Assembly (NCBI GenBank): GCA_023267855.1 | Contig: JALNLN010000019.1 | Coordinates: forward strand, 5,546-29,545 | Direction: 5' to 3' | DNA from: Candidatus Geocrenenecus dongiae | GTDB taxonomy: Archaea > Thermoproteota > Nitrososphaeria_A > Caldarchaeales > Wolframiiraptoraceae | DNA length: 24,000 nucleotides | Part shown: positions 13,133 to 19,417 of the stretch, in pieces | How positions within the stretch are numbered: the stretch's first letter is position 1 | Layout: each line of letters opens with the position of its first letter | Translations under genes and position numbers: made by a program | The notes under the pieces: generated by a model | Databases searched by the model: none | What the model was told of the DNA's origin: nothing | Seen by the model: the letters and a program-made list of their open reading frames with translations, nothing else

Positions 13133-13507
13133 TTATTCTGTTTGCATGGTTTTTAAGATTTCTCTACCTTCTTCTTCTTCAAGTTTTAGAGTTTTCTTTT
13201 CTAGGAACGGGAATTTCTTAGAAGCTTCTGTGATTTTCGTGAGGTTGGTCCATGTGATCTTTACTTGAGAAGGGTTCTTCCTGCCTAATGCGTATGGGTC
13301 TATGTTCATTATACCTTCACTATCAGCTATGAGCGGTCCATAGAGGATATCTTTATCAACGATGTGGAGAAATATTATGTCTCCTTTCTTAACATCTTTA
13401 ACTTCTTTCCACATTCTTCCAGGTGCTCCAACAAGCTTTTTCTCCAAACATTCCTCCTCCATACCTCCACTACAAGTAAACTTCCAGTACCTTACTTCCT
13501 CACTCAT
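13133..13507 (-). CDS. Small stand-alone PUA-fold protein, DCD/EVE-like (predicted modified-nucleic-acid reader)
   Basis: 124 aa. The order and spacing of YWKFTC..EEECLEKKLVGAP, GDIIFLH, LYGPLIA.SEG..NIDPYA and PSQVKITW mirror the DCD-domain motifs (FGLP, LFL, PAQV). SD AAGGAGAG lies just upstream of the ATG, and a TATA-like TTTTATATG sits about 35 nt upstream. Confidence 0.55.
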   Translation of the reverse strand: MSEEVRYWKFTCSGGMEEECLEKKLVGAPGRMWKEVKDVKKGDIIFLHIVDKDILYGPLIADSEGIMNIDPYALGRKNPSQVKITWTNLTKITEASKKFPFLEKKTLKLEEEEGREILKTMQTE

Positions 13508-14571: not shown

Positions 14572-15168
14572 TTAATATTTACTAGTATAAGTATTTTCTG
14601 CAATCATTGTTAATGCTTTCTTCGCGATGTTTGCTGCAGCATTCACATCTCTATTATACTCTGCTCCACATATACTACATCTAAACTCTCTCGAATTGGA
14701 TGGTTCATTTATATGACCACATCTATGACATGTCCTCGAACTATTGTTCGGATCAACATATACTACTTCTACCCCATTTATTAATGCTTTATACTCAATA
14801 AACTTCTGCAATTTCCTATATGGTAGATTGTGTAATCTTCTATTGAGCTCTCTACTGTAATCTATTTTCTCTCTTAAGCCTTCTAGCTCTTCCATTACTA
14901 TCATAGGTTTAGGAAACTGTTTGACAAACTCCACTATCTCCTTCGATATAATATGTAATTGTTCTTTTACTTTCCTTCTTTCTCTATCTTTAAATTCTGG
15001 GGAGCTGATTACTATTCTTGACGAGAAGAATAGTTTTGAAATAGGAGAAGCTCCATTAACAGAGCTGGAGAGAAAAGCGGTTGAATGGTTTAGTAAAGTT
15101 TTCCTTCTCCATGAGGGTATATAATATTGGGGGGTGAAGCGCTTATCAAGATAATAGATATTAACTTC
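14572..15168 (-). pseudogene. tnpB: 5'-truncated tnpB (IS200/IS605-family, IS1341-type RNA-guided nuclease), C-terminal half only
   Basis: The frame is open for 198 codons from the in-frame TAA at 15169-15171, and the first start codon is GTG 14934. The sequence reads ...KDRERRKVKEQLHIISKEIVEFVKQFPKPMIVMEELEGL (RuvC-II Glu), NRRLHNLPYRKLQKFIEYKA, zinc finger CHRCGH...CSICG, and RDVNAAANI (RuvC-III Asp). The WED/REC and RuvC-I parts are missing. Confidence 0.8.
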
Positions 15169-16558: not shown

Positions 16559-16579
16559 GGATAGCGGGAGAGAGATAGT

Positions 16580-16670
16580 GGGCCGGTAGTCTAGAGGCTA
16601 TGACGCCGCCCTGACAGAGATAAACTCCAGAATGCGGCGGAGGACGTGGGTTCGAATCCCACCCGGCCCA
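16580..16670 (+). tRNA. tRNA-Val (anticodon GAC) with an 18-nt intron in the anticodon loop
   Basis: Exons are identical to the 12958-13030 gene except for the anticodon loop. The loop CTGAC(A) is followed by an 18-nt insert (about 16617-16634, GAGATAAACTCCAGAATG if spliced 37/38) before C-GGCGG. Junctions one nt either way give the same length. Confidence 0.9.
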
Positions 16671-16680
16671 TCTTAATAGA

Positions 16681-16944: not shown

Positions 16945-18078
16945 TTAAATTGTTCCTCCTAATATTAAGCTCCAGTAAAGTTTGTTCACCATCTTTTTTC
17001 CTAGATACCATAGATAGCTGAATCTAGGCTTCTTGGGAGGGTTCTCGTAATTGAAATCCATGTATATTGCTTTTCTGAATCCTGCGTCGCAGAAGCATAC
17101 TACTCTCCCGTCATACACTAGTTTACTCTTCTGTCCAGTAATATCTGCATATATTCTTTTGCCAACTACTTTTGCTTCAAAATGTGCAGCTGCTCCAGAC
17201 TTAGATACAGGTAGGTTTGTAGCATCTCCAATAACATATACTTCACTGTACTCTTTATACTGGAGGGTATGTTTATCTACTGGTATCCATCCACTGTCAA
17301 CCCCGAGTCCAGACTCCTCGACTACTTTTGCACCTCTATGAGGTGGAACCATAACTAGTAGATCGAATTTCAGAGATTCTCCTTCTAGAGAATAAACTAT
17401 CTTTTTCTCAGGATCTACTGACTCTATATTGAACATTGGATGCCAGTATATGTTCTTCTTTTCCATCATTTCTGTTATTGCTTCTGCTACAGCTTCGTGA
17501 GGAAATGTTCTGGGTAGAGGTGATAGGTAGTGTATCTCAACTTTATCTCTCATCTTCTTTCTCGTGAAGTAGTAGTCTAGTAAACAGCAGAACTCTGCAG
17601 GTGCTGGTGGACACTTGTAGGGTATCCCACCTATACCAACCGCTATGACTCCTCCAGTAAATTCTTCTAAAACTTTACTTAATCTTCTAGCTTCTTCTAA
17701 ACTGTAAAAGTGATATGCGATCTGGTATCCAGGTACTTCTTCTGGAACTATCCGAGAACCCGTAGCTATAACTAGATAGTCATAATCTAGTTTACCTGTT
17801 CTCTCTAGAGCTACGTACCTATTCTCTACATCAATTCCAACAGCATTATCTATAATTAATTTAACATTTTTGTTTAATAGTTCTTTTTCTTCTCTTGCGA
17901 TGTCTCTTTCTTTAAGATTGTATCCTAGAGCTGTATATATGAAAGCTGGCTGGTAGATGTGTTTAGAGGAGTCGTTTACAACGATTATTTCAGCTTCTTT
18001 TCTTGAGAGTTTCCTAGCTAGAACATTTGCTACTATTGTTCCACCTGTTCCTCCACCAACTACTAGGATCCTCTTCAT
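16945..18078 (-). CDS. FAD-dependent pyridine nucleotide-disulfide oxidoreductase, sulfide:quinone oxidoreductase (SQR)-like
   Basis: N-terminal Rossmann motif ILVVGGGTGGT. Candidate redox cysteines lie in YKCPPAPAEFCC and VVCFCDAG. Size is 377 aa. It is the last gene of a dsrE-tusA operon. Confidence 0.75.
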   Translation of the reverse strand: MKRILVVGGGTGGTIVANVLARKLSRKEAEIIVVNDSSKHIYQPAFIYTALGYNLKERDIAREEKELLNKNVKLIIDNAVGIDVENRYVALERTGKLDYDYLVIATGSRIVPEEVPGYQIAYHFYSLEEARRLSKVLEEFTGGVIAVGIGGIPYKCPPAPAEFCCLLDYYFTRKKMRDKVEIHYLSPLPRTFPHEAVAEAITEMMEKKNIYWHPMFNIESVDPEKKIVYSLEGESLKFDLLVMVPPHRGAKVVEESGLGVDSGWIPVDKHTLQYKEYSEVYVIGDATNLPVSKSGAAAHFEAKVVGKRIYADITGQKSKLVYDGRVVCFCDAGFRKAIYMDFNYENPPKKPRFSYLWYLGKKMVNKLYWSLILGGTI

Positions 18079-18090
18079 ACTTCTACGTCT

Positions 18091-18330
18091 TCACTTAACT
18101 TTCTTGACAATAAATTCTGTGTATCCTTCTCTCTCATAGACACCTATTAACTGATGTCCAGCTTTCTCAACCCATCTAGGTATATCCGTCTTTGAACCAC
18201 TATCAGTAGAATAGACAGCAATAACTTCACCGATTTTTGCATTTCTAATAGTTTTTATCAACTCCATAAGTGGGCCGGGGCAGTGACTGCCCCTAGCATC
18301 CACAACCCTATCCACTTTAATCTCACTCAT
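18091..18330 (-). CDS. tusA: TusA/SirA-family sulfur carrier protein
   Basis: 79 aa with the [18 protein letters not shown] motif (Cys-Pro-x-Pro active site). Confidence 0.88.
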
Positions 18331-18359
18331 TACACTTACCCTCCAGATTCAGCTATCCC

Positions 18360-18791
18360 TTAGATAAATAAAGTTATACTGCTTTCTTTAGCTTTTTCTA
18401 AGAATTCTCCTACCCCAACTACACCGTCTATCAGTTCTGATAATTCTTCTTTCTTCATCTGGAATAAATCGTAAGTCATAGCACATGCATATATTTTCAC
18501 GTTCCCAAGTTCTTTAGCTTGTCTAAGCATCTCTATCCAATGGGGTACATTCTTTGCCTTGAATACGTTCATCACGAGCGGGGCCATTTCTTCAAAGTCT
18601 TTAGAGATCTTTCCAGGCTTATTGAGCTGGTCTTTTCTAAATGCGTTGAGACCCCAGAATGTGAGAAATATCTCTACATCCATACCCATGGCCGTAGCTC
18701 CAGATGCTAGTATCGCTACTGGGTAAAGCTTATCCACAGTTCCTGAAAAAGCTATAATTGAAAGCTTCTCTTTCTTAACCTGACCATTCAT
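18360..18791 (-). CDS. DsrE/DsrF-like sulfur-relay family protein
   Basis: 143 aa. It has IIAFSGT...AILASGA, FLTFWGL and a single Cys in KIYACAMTYDLF. This is typical of the DsrE-like proteins found next to tusA. Confidence 0.75.
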   Translation of the reverse strand: MNGQVKKEKLSIIAFSGTVDKLYPVAILASGATAMGMDVEIFLTFWGLNAFRKDQLNKPGKISKDFEEMAPLVMNVFKAKNVPHWIEMLRQAKELGNVKIYACAMTYDLFQMKKEELSELIDGVVGVGEFLEKAKESSITLFI

Positions 18792-19034
18792 AATAAGAAA
18801 TATCTTGTAAGAACGTAATAAGTCTTCTTGAGTAACAACTTTATGGAATGAAGCGGTTATTCGAAATCAACACAAGAAAATGTTTTCTCACTACATTTCA
18901 GCCTCATGAAATAAATAGACCTTTAAGCAAAAACTGTACATAACCTTCCCAATATTAGATGTCCCAGAAGTTTTTGAAGATTTCTTTAATTTTAAACTTG
19001 ACCAGATAAACTATAGTAGATGAGGTGGTGTGTA

Positions 19035-19073
19035 ATGTTTTTTACTAGACTCTACTCTTATCTTACTGGATGA
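19035..19073 (+). CDS. 12-codon leader ORF (MFFTRLYSYLTG), putative
   Basis: TGAGGTG (19021-19027) matches the anti-SD of archaeal 16S 3' ends and lies 7 nt before ATG 19035. Its stop TGA 19071-19073 overlaps ATG 19070 of the zinc-ribbon ORF (ATGA). Confidence 0.3.
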   Translation: MFFTRLYSYLTG

Positions 19074-19228
19074 GTAGTAAAAGTAGGAGGAATATTGTTA
19101 AGTGTCCTAACTGTGGACATGTTTTCGAGGTTAGTTATTCTAGAGTCTTTTCATGTGGTGGATGCCCATCTGTTATCTCATGTAAATACGTTAAGTGTCC
19201 AGAATGTGGTTACGAATTCCAAAAATAA
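19070..19228 (+). CDS. Small CPxCG-type zinc-ribbon protein, 52 aa (below the ORF-track size cut-off)
   Basis: My translation is MSSKSRRNIVKCPNCGHVFEVSYSRVFSCGGCPSVISCKYVKCPECGYEFQK*. It has seven Cys arranged CxxC-x13-CxxC-x5-C-x4-CxxC. An in-frame TAG at 19046-19048 makes ATG 19070 the only start. Confidence 0.55.
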   Translation: MSSKSRRNIVKCPNCGHVFEVSYSRVFSCGGCPSVISCKYVKCPECGYEFQK

Positions 19229-19417
19229 TTACATAGCTACATGGAAATTAACGTATCTGAAATCTAAACTTCATCCTCTATTCAAGATTACACTAAAAAT
19301 ATACCACACTATCAGATTAACTGGTTTTCTCTTTCTCTTAACTGAAAAATGACTATTTTAGAGAAATAACTCGTGGAGCAGAAAAATGTAAATGAAAAAA
19401 TTTGGAGAAGTGAGGCA

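Follow-up and report, generated by a model that had tools for sequence, protein, structure and literature searches.

A seven-cysteine C(P)XCG micro-protein gene of Candidatus Geocrenenecus and its probably incidental upstream ORF

In a Candidatus Geocrenenecus genome (Caldarchaeales), a window of 24,000 nucleotides, by which we mean the whole stretch of DNA that was analysed, contains a frame for a cysteine-rich protein of only 52 residues, whose start codon is overlapped by the stop of a 12-codon upstream ORF (uORF). This raises the questions of whether the frame is a gene, to which family its product would belong and whether its translation depends on the uORF. A sequence-only reading of the window had proposed an unlisted zinc-ribbon micro-protein whose synthesis is tied to that of a leader peptide by termination-reinitiation, with a conceivable link to neighbouring sulfur-relay genes. 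The joint explanation that we consider best, and hold to be probable rather than secure, is that the gene is genuine, that its product acts as a zinc-ribbon adaptor and that it is expressed without a leader from a T-rich element. The two frames that share the DNA in question are:

19070..19228, forward strand: CDS of the 52-aa seven-Cys micro-protein, from ATG 19070 to TAA 19228, stop included
19095..19352, forward strand: 85-aa alternative-frame ORF with a TTG start, not coding, as judged from stops in congeners

The frame opening at ATG 19070 does encode 52 aa, with the CPNCG, CGGCP and CPECG motifs and the seven Cys that had been described; these form the knuckles C12/C15, C29/C32 and C43/C46, with C38 single. 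The 85-aa ORF is, as the sequence-only reading said, a different frame across the same DNA, and in three of three congeners it meets stops past the end of the micro-protein. The description of the protein as unlisted holds for the ORF track that accompanied that reading, from which it is absent, but not for the public protein collection, where the exact 52-aa protein is already present (P0001, on 30 contigs). Many homologues have been deposited as hypothetical proteins and nearly all source names read ‘hypothetical’. Among these homologues all seven Cys are invariant in both an 80- and a 150-sequence set, which confirms the Cys spacing proposed as a check, and exactly seven Cys with fixed spacings were found in 147 of 150 sequences. 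The Cys pattern of the family is C-x2-C-x13-C-x2-C-x5-8-C-x4-C-x2-C and its fuller signature is C-P-x-C-G, 13 residues, C-x2-C, 5-8 residues, C-x-Y-[VI]-[KR]-C-P-x-C-G-x-E-F. P13, F19, Y23, R25, P44 and E49 are also invariant in both sets, making 13 invariant columns in total (150 sequences), and G16 and G47 are conserved at 90% or more. The median length of the family is 55 aa and its median net charge is +5, with +3 in the N-terminal tail, which in the micro-protein is K/R-rich. The comparison of synonymous and non-synonymous change with congeners, at which a spurious frame might have failed, gave a dN/dS of 0.075-0.11 and so does not refute the gene, with dS above 1 and synonymous sites near saturation. 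Conservation and codon change point to a frame that is clearly more than chance; the C(P)XCG-type cysteine-rich micro-protein gene is real and under purifying selection, and 19070-19228 is a genuine gene, free-standing and present as a single copy, whose family is unnamed and widespread among archaea.

Homologues were found in 135 GTDB species loci. Homologous proteins form 246 clusters when grouped at 90% identity, and 71 representatives match with E 1e-10 or better when the grouping is at 50%. Homologues in relatives have E values of 1e-13 to 1e-28, and six-frame matches without stops were obtained in 16 relatives. Of 301 sampled genomes of the phylum 99 carry the micro-protein, including the closed 1.5-Mb genomes G067 and G074, and carriage is consistent by family, at 22/23, 6/6 and 4/4 in some and 0/45 and 0/20 in others; in its own order the family was found in 17 of 61 genomes, and its distribution is thus patchy. 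Homologue titles also name Asgard, Hadarchaeales and Thermoplasmata, and identity to homologues titled as other archaeal phyla is about 50-65%. A search of IMG/VR for a viral origin gave just partial matches at 38-41%. We also considered a family restricted to hyperthermophiles and rejected it, as many carriers (e.g., family f11) match the reverse gyrase model only at topoisomerase level.

The arrangement upstream of the gene, from which coupling to a leader peptide had been proposed, comprises the following:

18966..18977, forward strand: AGAAGTTTTTGA, best match to the BRE/TATA model, 9.1 bits, at -104, not conserved
18985..18994, forward strand: TATA-like TTTAATTTTA, noted in the sequence-only reading
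19020..19030, forward strand: ATGAGGTGGTG, SD-like TGAGGTG (19021-19027) plus in-frame ATG (19020), conserved only with the nearest congener
19031..19048, forward strand: T-rich upstream element TGTAATGTTTTTTACTAG, read as a putative BRE/TATA core promoter
19035..19073, forward strand: 12-codon upstream ORF (MFFTRLYSYLTG, stop TGA), with ATGA overlap with the main start

ATG 19035 indeed opens 12 codons that end in TGA at 19071-19073, giving the ATGA overlap (19070-19073); TGAGGTG lies 7 nt ahead of it, an in-frame ATG at 19020 would lengthen the uORF to 17 codons, and ATG 19070 has no SD of its own, with no SD-like match in the preceding 18 nt. A stop overlapping the main start and a ribosome-binding site of the uORF's own, the structural marks of uORF coupling, are found together in this genome only, and the arrangement is not conserved in orthologous loci. 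The ATGA overlap and the SD before the upstream frame are also those of termination-reinitiation in prokaryotic operons, where, however, the upstream frame is a gene and not a non-conserved mini-ORF. A 1-nt deletion relative to three congeners creates the uORF frame. In the nearest congener the corresponding ORF is 4 codons long and stops 22 nt short of the start, in the next it is reduced to ATG-TAA, and the fourth lacks an ATG at this place. Neither the mini-ORF nor the ATGA overlap, the conservation of which had been suggested as a test, is therefore kept in the congeners, and this speaks against the proposed coupling. Of 73 loci scanned, 7 have an ATG-initiated upstream ORF of at least 3 codons whose end lies no more than 4 nt from the start (a short ORF in five cases); these loci are scattered across lineages and include no congener. 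In 25 of the 73 the gene has its own SD of at least 5 nt. The genome contains 108 copies of TGAGGTG, the same number as base composition predicts (108), and 17 of the copies precede the start codon of an ORF shorter than 30 aa; the uORF/SD pair is not clearly more than chance. By manual count the block from -50 to -22 is identical to that of G. huangii at 22 of 23 positions, compared with 14 of 21 for -21 to -1, and the ATGAGGTGGTG block is not conserved in the other two congeners; judged by alignment, the block with TGAGGTG is under some constraint in this species and its nearest congener. The 12-codon uORF is probably not a functional peptide, and the coupling is probably incidental. The uORF overlaps the conserved promoter-like element, and we propose that it would have arisen as a side effect of an ATG falling within the BRE together with the 1-nt deletion, and would not be a coupled leader peptide.

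We hypothesise instead that the gene forms a transcription unit by itself, driven by the conserved T-rich BRE/TATA-like element some 25-38 nt upstream of the ATG, and that its mRNA would be leaderless or nearly so, which would explain why ATG 19070 lacks an SD. By definition (PMC11698992), an mRNA counts as leaderless when its mapped 5' end is no more than about 5 nt away from the start codon. Upstream of the start, TTTTT(C)TACTA is the one island whose conservation spans all four congeners. Its equivalent in Wolframiiraptor loci, AATCTTTTTC at -39 to -45, is the top match of a genome-derived BRE/TATA model, and in 8 of 12 relatives the top match of this genome's model within 160 nt falls at -36 to -45. 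Across the genome, first genes have their maximum of TATA-like hexamers and of the BRE/TATA motif between -45 and -31 relative to the ATG. The hexamers start mostly at -42 to -25, and in 76 of 224 such genes an unbiased BRE/TATA motif starts at -45 to -36; upstream of the micro-protein gene TTTTTA starts at -31, inside the genome-wide TATA peak. Because the conserved element sits where BRE/TATA motifs peak genome-wide, about 30-45 nt upstream of the start, its position suggests a leaderless or short-leader mRNA. An SD match is lacking in 58% of first genes with reliable starts, compared with 24% of operon-internal genes. The BRE/TATA model evidence for the gene is nevertheless split between -104 and -37. 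The T-rich element scores low with the genome's own model (1.9 bits), and the hexamer kept in relatives, TTTTTC, is not among the TATA forms enriched here. The -104 site is within the top 9% of real promoters, with a chance of about 0.06 among 100 positions, and if active would give a leader of about 60 nt holding the SD-like heptamer and the uORF, so that a leadered transcript is possible in this genome via this stronger, non-conserved match. The TATA-like TTTAATTTTA exists as reported, but one base away from the position it had been given, and a 12-mer at 18986 that overlaps it scores 5.0 bits with the genome model. As a side result, the analysis indicates that Geocrenenecus first genes mostly start without an SD and have BRE/TATA about 30-45 nt upstream of the ATG, like those of Saccharolobus.

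Two other readings of this region need to be weighed. One is that a leadered mRNA starts at about 19005-19020 and that TGAGGTG directs translation of the 12- or 17-codon uORF, followed by termination at ATGA and reinitiation on ATG 19070, in which case synthesis of the micro-protein would depend on uORF translation. The 7-nt SD-like match with its ideal 7-nt spacing, the ATGA overlap, the main ATG without an SD, the BRE/TATA matches (strongest at -104, others at -95 and -84) and the retention of TGAGGTA in the nearest congener are all consistent with this, but the uORF has 12 (or 17), 4, 1 and 0 codons in the four congeners with the overlap here only, its peptide sequence is not conserved and the -104 site lies in sequence that aligns poorly with congeners. 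Moreover, no such uORF exists in Wolframiiraptor and other lineages, 25 of the 73 loci have an SD of their own, the frequency of TGAGGTG does not exceed what base composition predicts and the structure of the putative leader RNA is not unusual (z = -0.9), such that we regard this reading as quite unlikely. It is also unlikely in our view, if less so, that the block 19020-19048 is instead a transcription-factor operator or a 5'-UTR RNA element and the true promoter is further upstream. In favour of this reading, the conserved TTTTTCTACTAG departs from a canonical TATA, TTTTTC shows no positional enrichment across the genome, the block scores low with the genome model both here and in G. huangii, and in the two closest species conservation extends past a normal BRE on its upstream side. 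What argues for a core promoter over an operator is that no other gene in the genome has this element as a promoter-proximal motif, which gives no hint of a regulon; as regards an RNA element, there was no Rfam match and no significant RNA structure (fold z = -0.9). In addition, the Wolframiiraptor equivalent is the best BRE/TATA match and is at the modal promoter distance.

Turning to the protein itself, its sequence places it in the C(P)XCG zinc-finger micro-protein class and in no named family inside that class. At 52 aa it is within the class length of at most 70 aa (class definition, PMC11241148), and it has CPNCG and CPECG plus CGGCP, with C12, P13, C15, C43, P44 and C46 invariant. Pfam, NCBIfam and PADLOC scans gave nothing at cut-off and only generic zinc-ribbon knuckles, all named-family models of Pfam and NCBIfam being below cut-off with single-knuckle matches: UPF0547 (PF10571), the best Pfam row, with 25.8 bits over residues 10-20 (gathering cut-off 29), and CPxCG_zf (PF19769) with 15.3 bits (E 0.018) over residues 4-24 only (gathering cut-off 27.2). 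A profile search of all PDB chains gave knuckle-level matches only. AlphaFold2, run twice with 80 and 150 sequences, returned pLDDT values of 62 and 61, lowest over knuckle 2, and the same strands in both low-confidence models (8-11, 18-21, 40-42 and 49-51), which flank knuckles 1 and 3. AlphaFold2 reportedly mispredicts whether the four cysteines of C(P)XCG proteins take tetrahedral metal-binding geometry, and several Haloferax C(P)XCG proteins bind no zinc (PMC11241148). Foldseek found no match in the PDB at E 0.001 or better, VIA-align against 48,161 chains reached a best Z of 2.9 (ZitP, RBR IBR/RING2, NZF, LysW), which is not informative, and the ESM Atlas contained unnamed clusters only, at 0.90-0.92. 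We propose that the N- and C-terminal CPxCG knuckles, each in a predicted β-hairpin, would form a zinc ribbon, and that the middle C-x2-C and the lone Cys may form a second three-Cys metal site or one completed by a partner; with its K/R-rich tail the protein could act as a small adaptor with a structural role, seated on nucleic acid or on some conserved protein machine.

Among described proteins, the C(P)XCG micro-proteins of Haloferax volcanii (HVO_2753, HVO_0758, HVO_0416; PMC11241148, PMC10716476, PMC6562870) are likewise shorter than 70 aa with at least two C(P)XCG knuckles and, like the present family, free-standing and largely uncharacterised, and HVO_2753 (PDB 6ydh) is among the best, non-significant, fold matches. 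The present family differs from them in its seven invariant Cys (three knuckles plus one), its SY-x-R motif with invariant Y23 and R25, and its range, which takes in Thermoproteota, Asgard and others as against haloarchaea. Nor does the micro-protein belong by sequence to the H. volcanii families, as its scores with the NCBIfam models HVO_0416 (12.7 bits, E 0.088, cut-off 80) and HVO_0758 (9.7 bits, E 0.78, cut-off 70) are far below cut-off.

What the gene has as neighbours bears on a possible function in sulfur metabolism, and the relevant features are:

16579..16672, forward strand: intron-containing tRNA-Val(GAC), from alignment with other tRNAs
16945..18791, reverse strand: cassette of SQR-like flavoprotein, TusA and DsrE, from Pfam matches, divergent from the micro-protein gene

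ARAGORN labels the first of these tRNA-Ser(tga); outside an 18-nt insert it is identical to an intron-less tRNA-Val(GAC) and to the upstream tRNAs of loci L022, L026 and L031. This tRNA lies about 80-130 nt upstream of the gene (up to about 230 nt at one locus) in G. arthurdayi and most Wolframiiraptor-group loci examined, and at L022 the order is aTrm56, the tRNA and then, immediately, the micro-protein gene, whereas dsrE-tusA-SQR stands between the two here and, as far as checked, in G. huangii. Comparison of these loci suggests that tRNA-Val(GAC) is the ancestral upstream neighbour and identifies the cassette as a lineage-specific insertion between it and the gene. Neighbour Pfam scans covered 77 upstream and 76 downstream neighbours, and clustering of 632 flanking ORFs gave no conserved gene partner, with no family in more than 6 loci.

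Two alternative identities for the protein can be assessed on this basis. A redox or metal-handling protein, namely a rubredoxin-like iron or persulfide carrier working with DsrE, TusA and SQR, would fit the divergent placement beside the cassette here and in G. huangii, an odd seventh Cys that could be reactive, and knuckles of the rubredoxin type, rubredoxin also having CxxCG and CPxCG and about 52 aa. However, DsrE occupies the upstream position in only 2 of 77 loci and no neighbour family exceeds 6 of about 77, the cassette is itself an insertion, and rubredoxin has four Cys against seven, with a non-significant fold match and weak matches to one knuckle only (E 0.033); the sulfur-relay link that had been thought conceivable loses its footing with the inserted cassette, and we judge such a role very unlikely. 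It is more improbable still, to the point of hardly being credible, that the protein is a mis-named known zinc-ribbon subunit such as Rpo12/RpoP, LysW or a ribosomal protein. Rpo12/RpoP (PF03604, COG1996) is, like it, a small zinc-ribbon protein of about 50 aa, and JGI names the homologues P0003 and P0083 ‘RPC12/RpoP’, but the genome has a typical four-Cys Rpo12 candidate elsewhere, on contig C4, which is its best PF03604 match (16.8 bits, cut-off 24), and that search did not report the micro-protein locus at E 0.1 or better. The PDB profile search, which included archaeal ribosomes and RNA polymerases, gave nothing better than E 0.004 for such subunits, and E 0.17-0.6 for Rpo12 chains; a family found in just 17 of 61 genomes of its own order also sits poorly with such a subunit. 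LysW carries its substrate on an acidic C-terminal EDWGE tail and has four Cys. The C-terminal tails of the present family, unlike that of LysW, are variable and often basic. LysW/ArgW (PF21344, TIGR01206; PDB 3wwl, 5k2m) are similar in size and rank first in the Foldseek comparison (TM about 0.48, E 0.6-0.8), and Pfam Zn_ribbon_LysW comes just under its cut-off (PF21344, 24 against 27 bits), but that match is confined to residues 8-21, the first knuckle, and the other models are well below theirs (TIGR01206, 16.3 against 53.2; NF041070, 19.4 against 75 bits), each named model covering one knuckle.

This is thus a tiny and extremely constrained family, present in about a third of sampled Thermoproteota and in Asgard and others, for which there is no Pfam or NCBIfam model, and being constrained yet without model, structure or function it is a well-defined target for small-protein biochemistry, for example the metal stoichiometry of the seven Cys, an NMR structure and binding partners. 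The negative result on uORF coupling also matters, since an SD, a mini-ORF and an ATGA overlap can mimic designed coupling in one genome and vanish on aligning three congeners.

Unlikely, but of wider consequence, is the idea that these seven-Cys proteins have gone unnoticed as a small subunit or cofactor of a core nucleic-acid machine, be it for transcription, translation, replication or tRNA processing; if true, this component would be at work in about a third of Thermoproteota as well as in several lineages of Asgard and other archaea. The idea is hinted at by the tight constraint (13 invariant columns) together with cross-phylum identity, by the basic N-terminal tail, by the anchoring of the gene by tRNA-Val(GAC) and aTrm56 in Caldarchaeales, and by one homologue that bears a LAGLIDADG intein. 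This homologue and one URO-D fusion are the unusual forms found, too few for clues to function in themselves. Inteins are mostly located in conserved sites of information-processing proteins, and the one found here sits within the first CPxC knuckle.

The frame from ATG 19070 to TAA 19228 (+), encoding a 52-amino acid micro-protein with the motifs CPNCG, CGGCP and CPECG and seven cysteines, is present as the sequence-only reading had described it, as is the 85-amino acid ORF at 19095-19352, which begins at TTG and occupies a different frame on the same DNA. A six-frame search found uninterrupted matches to the micro-protein in 16 of 61 related genomes (one per genome, E 1e-13 to 1e-28), and since the closest loci by title belong to Candidatus Geocrenenecus huangii (85% identity) and G. 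arthurdayi (79%), the window can be assigned to that genus (Wolframiiraptoraceae, Caldarchaeales). Comparison with relatives, proposed earlier as a check for purifying selection, gave a dN/dS of 0.075-0.11 against three congeners where dS was estimable (1.06-1.17), synonymous sites being saturated elsewhere. The alternative 85-amino acid frame has stops in all three congeners beyond the micro-protein. It had also been said that gene callers miss such micro-proteins; however, the exact protein has already been deposited in a public collection (P0001, 30 contigs), so gene callers do detect it. We are almost certain that a real micro-protein gene runs from ATG 19070 to TAA 19228, and its conservation is unusually high.

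A pattern scan in which each GTDB species was represented by one genome led to 135 confirmed loci; the 80 that were kept carry titles from Caldarchaeales, Bathyarchaeia, Thermofilaceae, Desulfurococcales, Nezhaarchaeales, Odin- and Baldrarchaeota, Hadarchaeales and Methanobacteriota. Profile searches returned 246 homologue clusters at 90% identity, among whose names are also Methanomethylicia, Korarchaeia, Jord- and Freyarchaeota and Thermoplasmata; nearly all are called hypothetical protein, and a few bear generic or misleading names (RPC12/RpoP, C2H2 Zn-finger protein, DNA helicase PriA). At 50% identity there are 71 family representatives with E 1e-10 or better, almost all of 47-128 amino acids. 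Alignments of 80 and of 150 sequences show that C12, P13, C15, F19, Y23, R25, C29, C32, C38, C43, P44, C46 and E49 are invariant, bearing out the expected conservation of all seven cysteines. Exactly seven cysteines occur in 147 of the 150 sequences, with the spacing C-x2-C-x13-C-x2-C-x5-8-C-x4-C-x2-C, and the family has a median net charge of +5 and an N-terminal tail rich in K/R. Among 301 sampled genomes of the phylum 99 are carriers (59 of 130 genera), usually with a single copy, and presence tracks families, with 22/23, 6/6 and 4/4 in some and 0/45 and 0/20 in others. Within its own order the micro-protein was found in 17 of 61 genomes; a search of two 95%-complete congeners did not recover it.

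Several public homologues depart from this simple form. An intein inside a host protein of about 50 amino acids is unusual, and P0167, a metagenome protein of 409 amino acids, carries one of about 364 amino acids with a LAGLIDADG domain, splitting the first CPxC knuckle between K and C (N-extein ending ..CPK, intein from C.. to ..VHN, C-extein beginning CGFRF...); its middle part matches the intein portions of intein-bearing RpoA'', PolD, Tes and RNR models. P0125, P0142, P0164 and P0165 (105-128 amino acids) form a sub-family in which the seven-cysteine domain is followed by a tail of about 35-45 amino acids that ends in a conserved ...GE(S/R)P.(R/Q) motif and gave no match in Pfam. In a single case, P0184 (437 amino acids), a divergent seven-cysteine domain lies at the C-terminus of a URO-D family (uroporphyrinogen decarboxylase/methyltransferase-like) protein.

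Scans of the micro-protein with Pfam, NCBIfam and PADLOC gave no model at cut-off, all matches being to single knuckles, and a PDB profile search gave E 0.0004 to 0.6 against Rpo12, ribosomal proteins, LysW and rubredoxin, the likeness again being confined to the knuckles. Two AlphaFold2 runs returned the same low-confidence model (pLDDT 62 and 61), with two beta-hairpins around knuckles 1 (C12/C15) and 3 (C43/C46) and a poorly defined middle segment containing C29, C32 and C38; in fold searches with this model no score was significant, and the only hits were generic zinc ribbons. On our reading, a zinc ribbon would be built from knuckles 1 and 3, and the three middle cysteines may provide a second site to which a partner or another ligand perhaps contributes. 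We place the family in the known C(P)XCG zinc-finger micro-protein class, as a new member without a name of its own; metal content is not predictable in this class (PMC11241148). As its most likely role we tentatively propose a structural adaptor with two metals, working on nucleic acid or a conserved protein complex. The RpoP label that JGI gives two homologues is unsupported; a typical four-cysteine Rpo12-like ORF is found on contig C4 of the same genome. This 71-amino acid open frame (G000:C4:43026-43127, minus strand; locus L101 1432-1647), with CxxC...CPYCG, is likely the Rpo12/RpoP of the genome; it scores 16.8 bits, below the Pfam cut-off of 24, and its true start is probably internal.

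Synthesis of the micro-protein had been proposed to be coupled, by termination and reinitiation, to a 12-codon leader ORF (uORF). The elements of that proposal are all in place: the frame from ATG 19035 with its stop TGA at 19071-19073 and ATGA overlap, TGAGGTG at 19021-19027, 7 nt ahead of ATG 19035, and no SD-like match before ATG 19070. A further in-frame ATG at 19020 would lengthen the uORF to 17 codons. Comparison, however, does not support coupling. In the upstream alignment of four congeners one base is missing in this genome within TTTTT(C)TACTAG; the nearest congener, which retains it, reads ATG TTT TTC TAC TAG, four codons ending 22 nt before the start, while the next has ATG TAA at this position and the fourth has no ATG. 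ATG-initiated upstream ORFs of at least 3 codons ending no more than 4 nt from the micro-protein start occur in only 7 of 73 loci; two are long (51 codons, and 495 in what is certainly a real gene), and the other five are short and scattered, none in a congener, so the anticipated conservation of a mini-ORF with ATGA overlap did not emerge. An SD of at least 5 nt stands directly ahead of the start in 25 of the 73 loci, and TGAGGTG occurs 108 times in the genome against 108 expected from base composition, 17 copies preceding ORFs of under 30 amino acids. Coupling therefore characterises neither the family nor even the genus, and the uORF, judged from these alignments, is very probably not a conserved coupling device. 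Functional reinitiation in this genome alone is formally possible and, we think, improbable.

The TATA-like TTTAATTTTA noted earlier is present, at 18985-18994. The four congeners share a single island, TTTTT(C)TACTA, with (T)GTAA ahead of it; a similar distance upstream, Wolframiiraptor loci show (A)TAATCTTTTTCA. We derived promoter geometry from the genome's own ORFs of at least 120 amino acids whose ATG start was unambiguous. An SD match of at least 5 nt precedes 47% of operon-internal genes versus 15% of first genes; TATA-like hexamers start mainly at -42 to -25, with 13 of 50 TTTTTA starts in the -36 to -31 bin; and unbiased motif discovery placed the start of a BRE/TATA motif, AAAAGATTTATA, at -45 to -36 in 76 of 224 first genes. 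The SD split and motif position suggest that first cistrons of Geocrenenecus are mostly leaderless. This geometry is that of leaderless or very short-leader mRNAs, known from Saccharolobus, where 73% are leaderless (PMC11698992). At the micro-protein gene TTTTTA starts at -31, and 8 of 12 related loci have their best match to the genome-derived model, over the 160 nt upstream, at -36 to -45, although six of these are Wolframiiraptor-group and hence not independent.

In this genome itself, however, the element at the conserved position scores only 1.9 bits, whereas a non-conserved site at 18966-18977 (-104) scores 9.1 bits, level with the top 9% of real promoters, a match expected by chance in about 6% of cases over 100 positions. 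A transcript from the -104 site would carry TGAGGTG and the uORF, and block 19020-19048 is identical to G. huangii at 22 of 23 positions (manual count from the alignment) despite a dS of 1.17 at neutral sites. In view of the low score, the strong -104 site and the conserved block we lean slightly towards a leaderless or short-leader mRNA, regard a leadered transcript in this genome as possible but doubtful, and give functional reinitiation coupling the low weight stated above. The combined statement, that a genuine gene for an inferred zinc-ribbon protein is expressed from a leaderless or short-leader mRNA with an incidental uORF, is reasonably probable.

Flanking ORFs at 81 loci revealed no conserved partner gene, the most frequent Pfam family accounting for at most 6 of about 77 immediate neighbours. 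The features that bear on the local gene order are:

16579-16672, plus strand, tRNA-Val(GAC), identified by alignment with a relative's intron-less tRNA-Val(GAC)
16945-18791, minus strand, SQR-like/TusA/DsrE cassette, between tRNA-Val(GAC) and the micro-protein gene

The distance from tRNA-Val(GAC) to the gene downstream is about 80-140 nt (about 230 nt in one locus) in G. arthurdayi and most of the Wolframiiraptor-group loci examined, and the older order in Caldarchaeales appears to have been tfe, aTrm56, tRNA-Val(GAC), micro-protein. In G. arthurdayi (L022 3193-4156) the micro-protein gene comes straight after aTrm56 and the tRNA, and in G. huangii DsrE likewise adjoins the gene upstream. 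The cassette, lacking between tRNA and gene in G. arthurdayi, was thus recently gained or lost within the genus. The divergent placement with dsrE is a recent insertion, not evidence for the regulatory link to sulfur relay that had been entertained. ARAGORN called 16579-16672 as tRNA-Ser(tga), which we reject because the alignment shows a tRNA-Val(GAC) in which 18 nt are inserted after the anticodon region; comparable inserts occur in the tRNAs of loci L022 and L026, which ARAGORN likewise overlooks or mis-calls. Between tRNA-Val(TAC) and tfe the window further contains a Cas12f1-like TNB domain fragment (TnpB remnant; 14575-14934, minus strand) and a stand-alone DCD (development and cell death) domain protein (13136-13507, minus strand).
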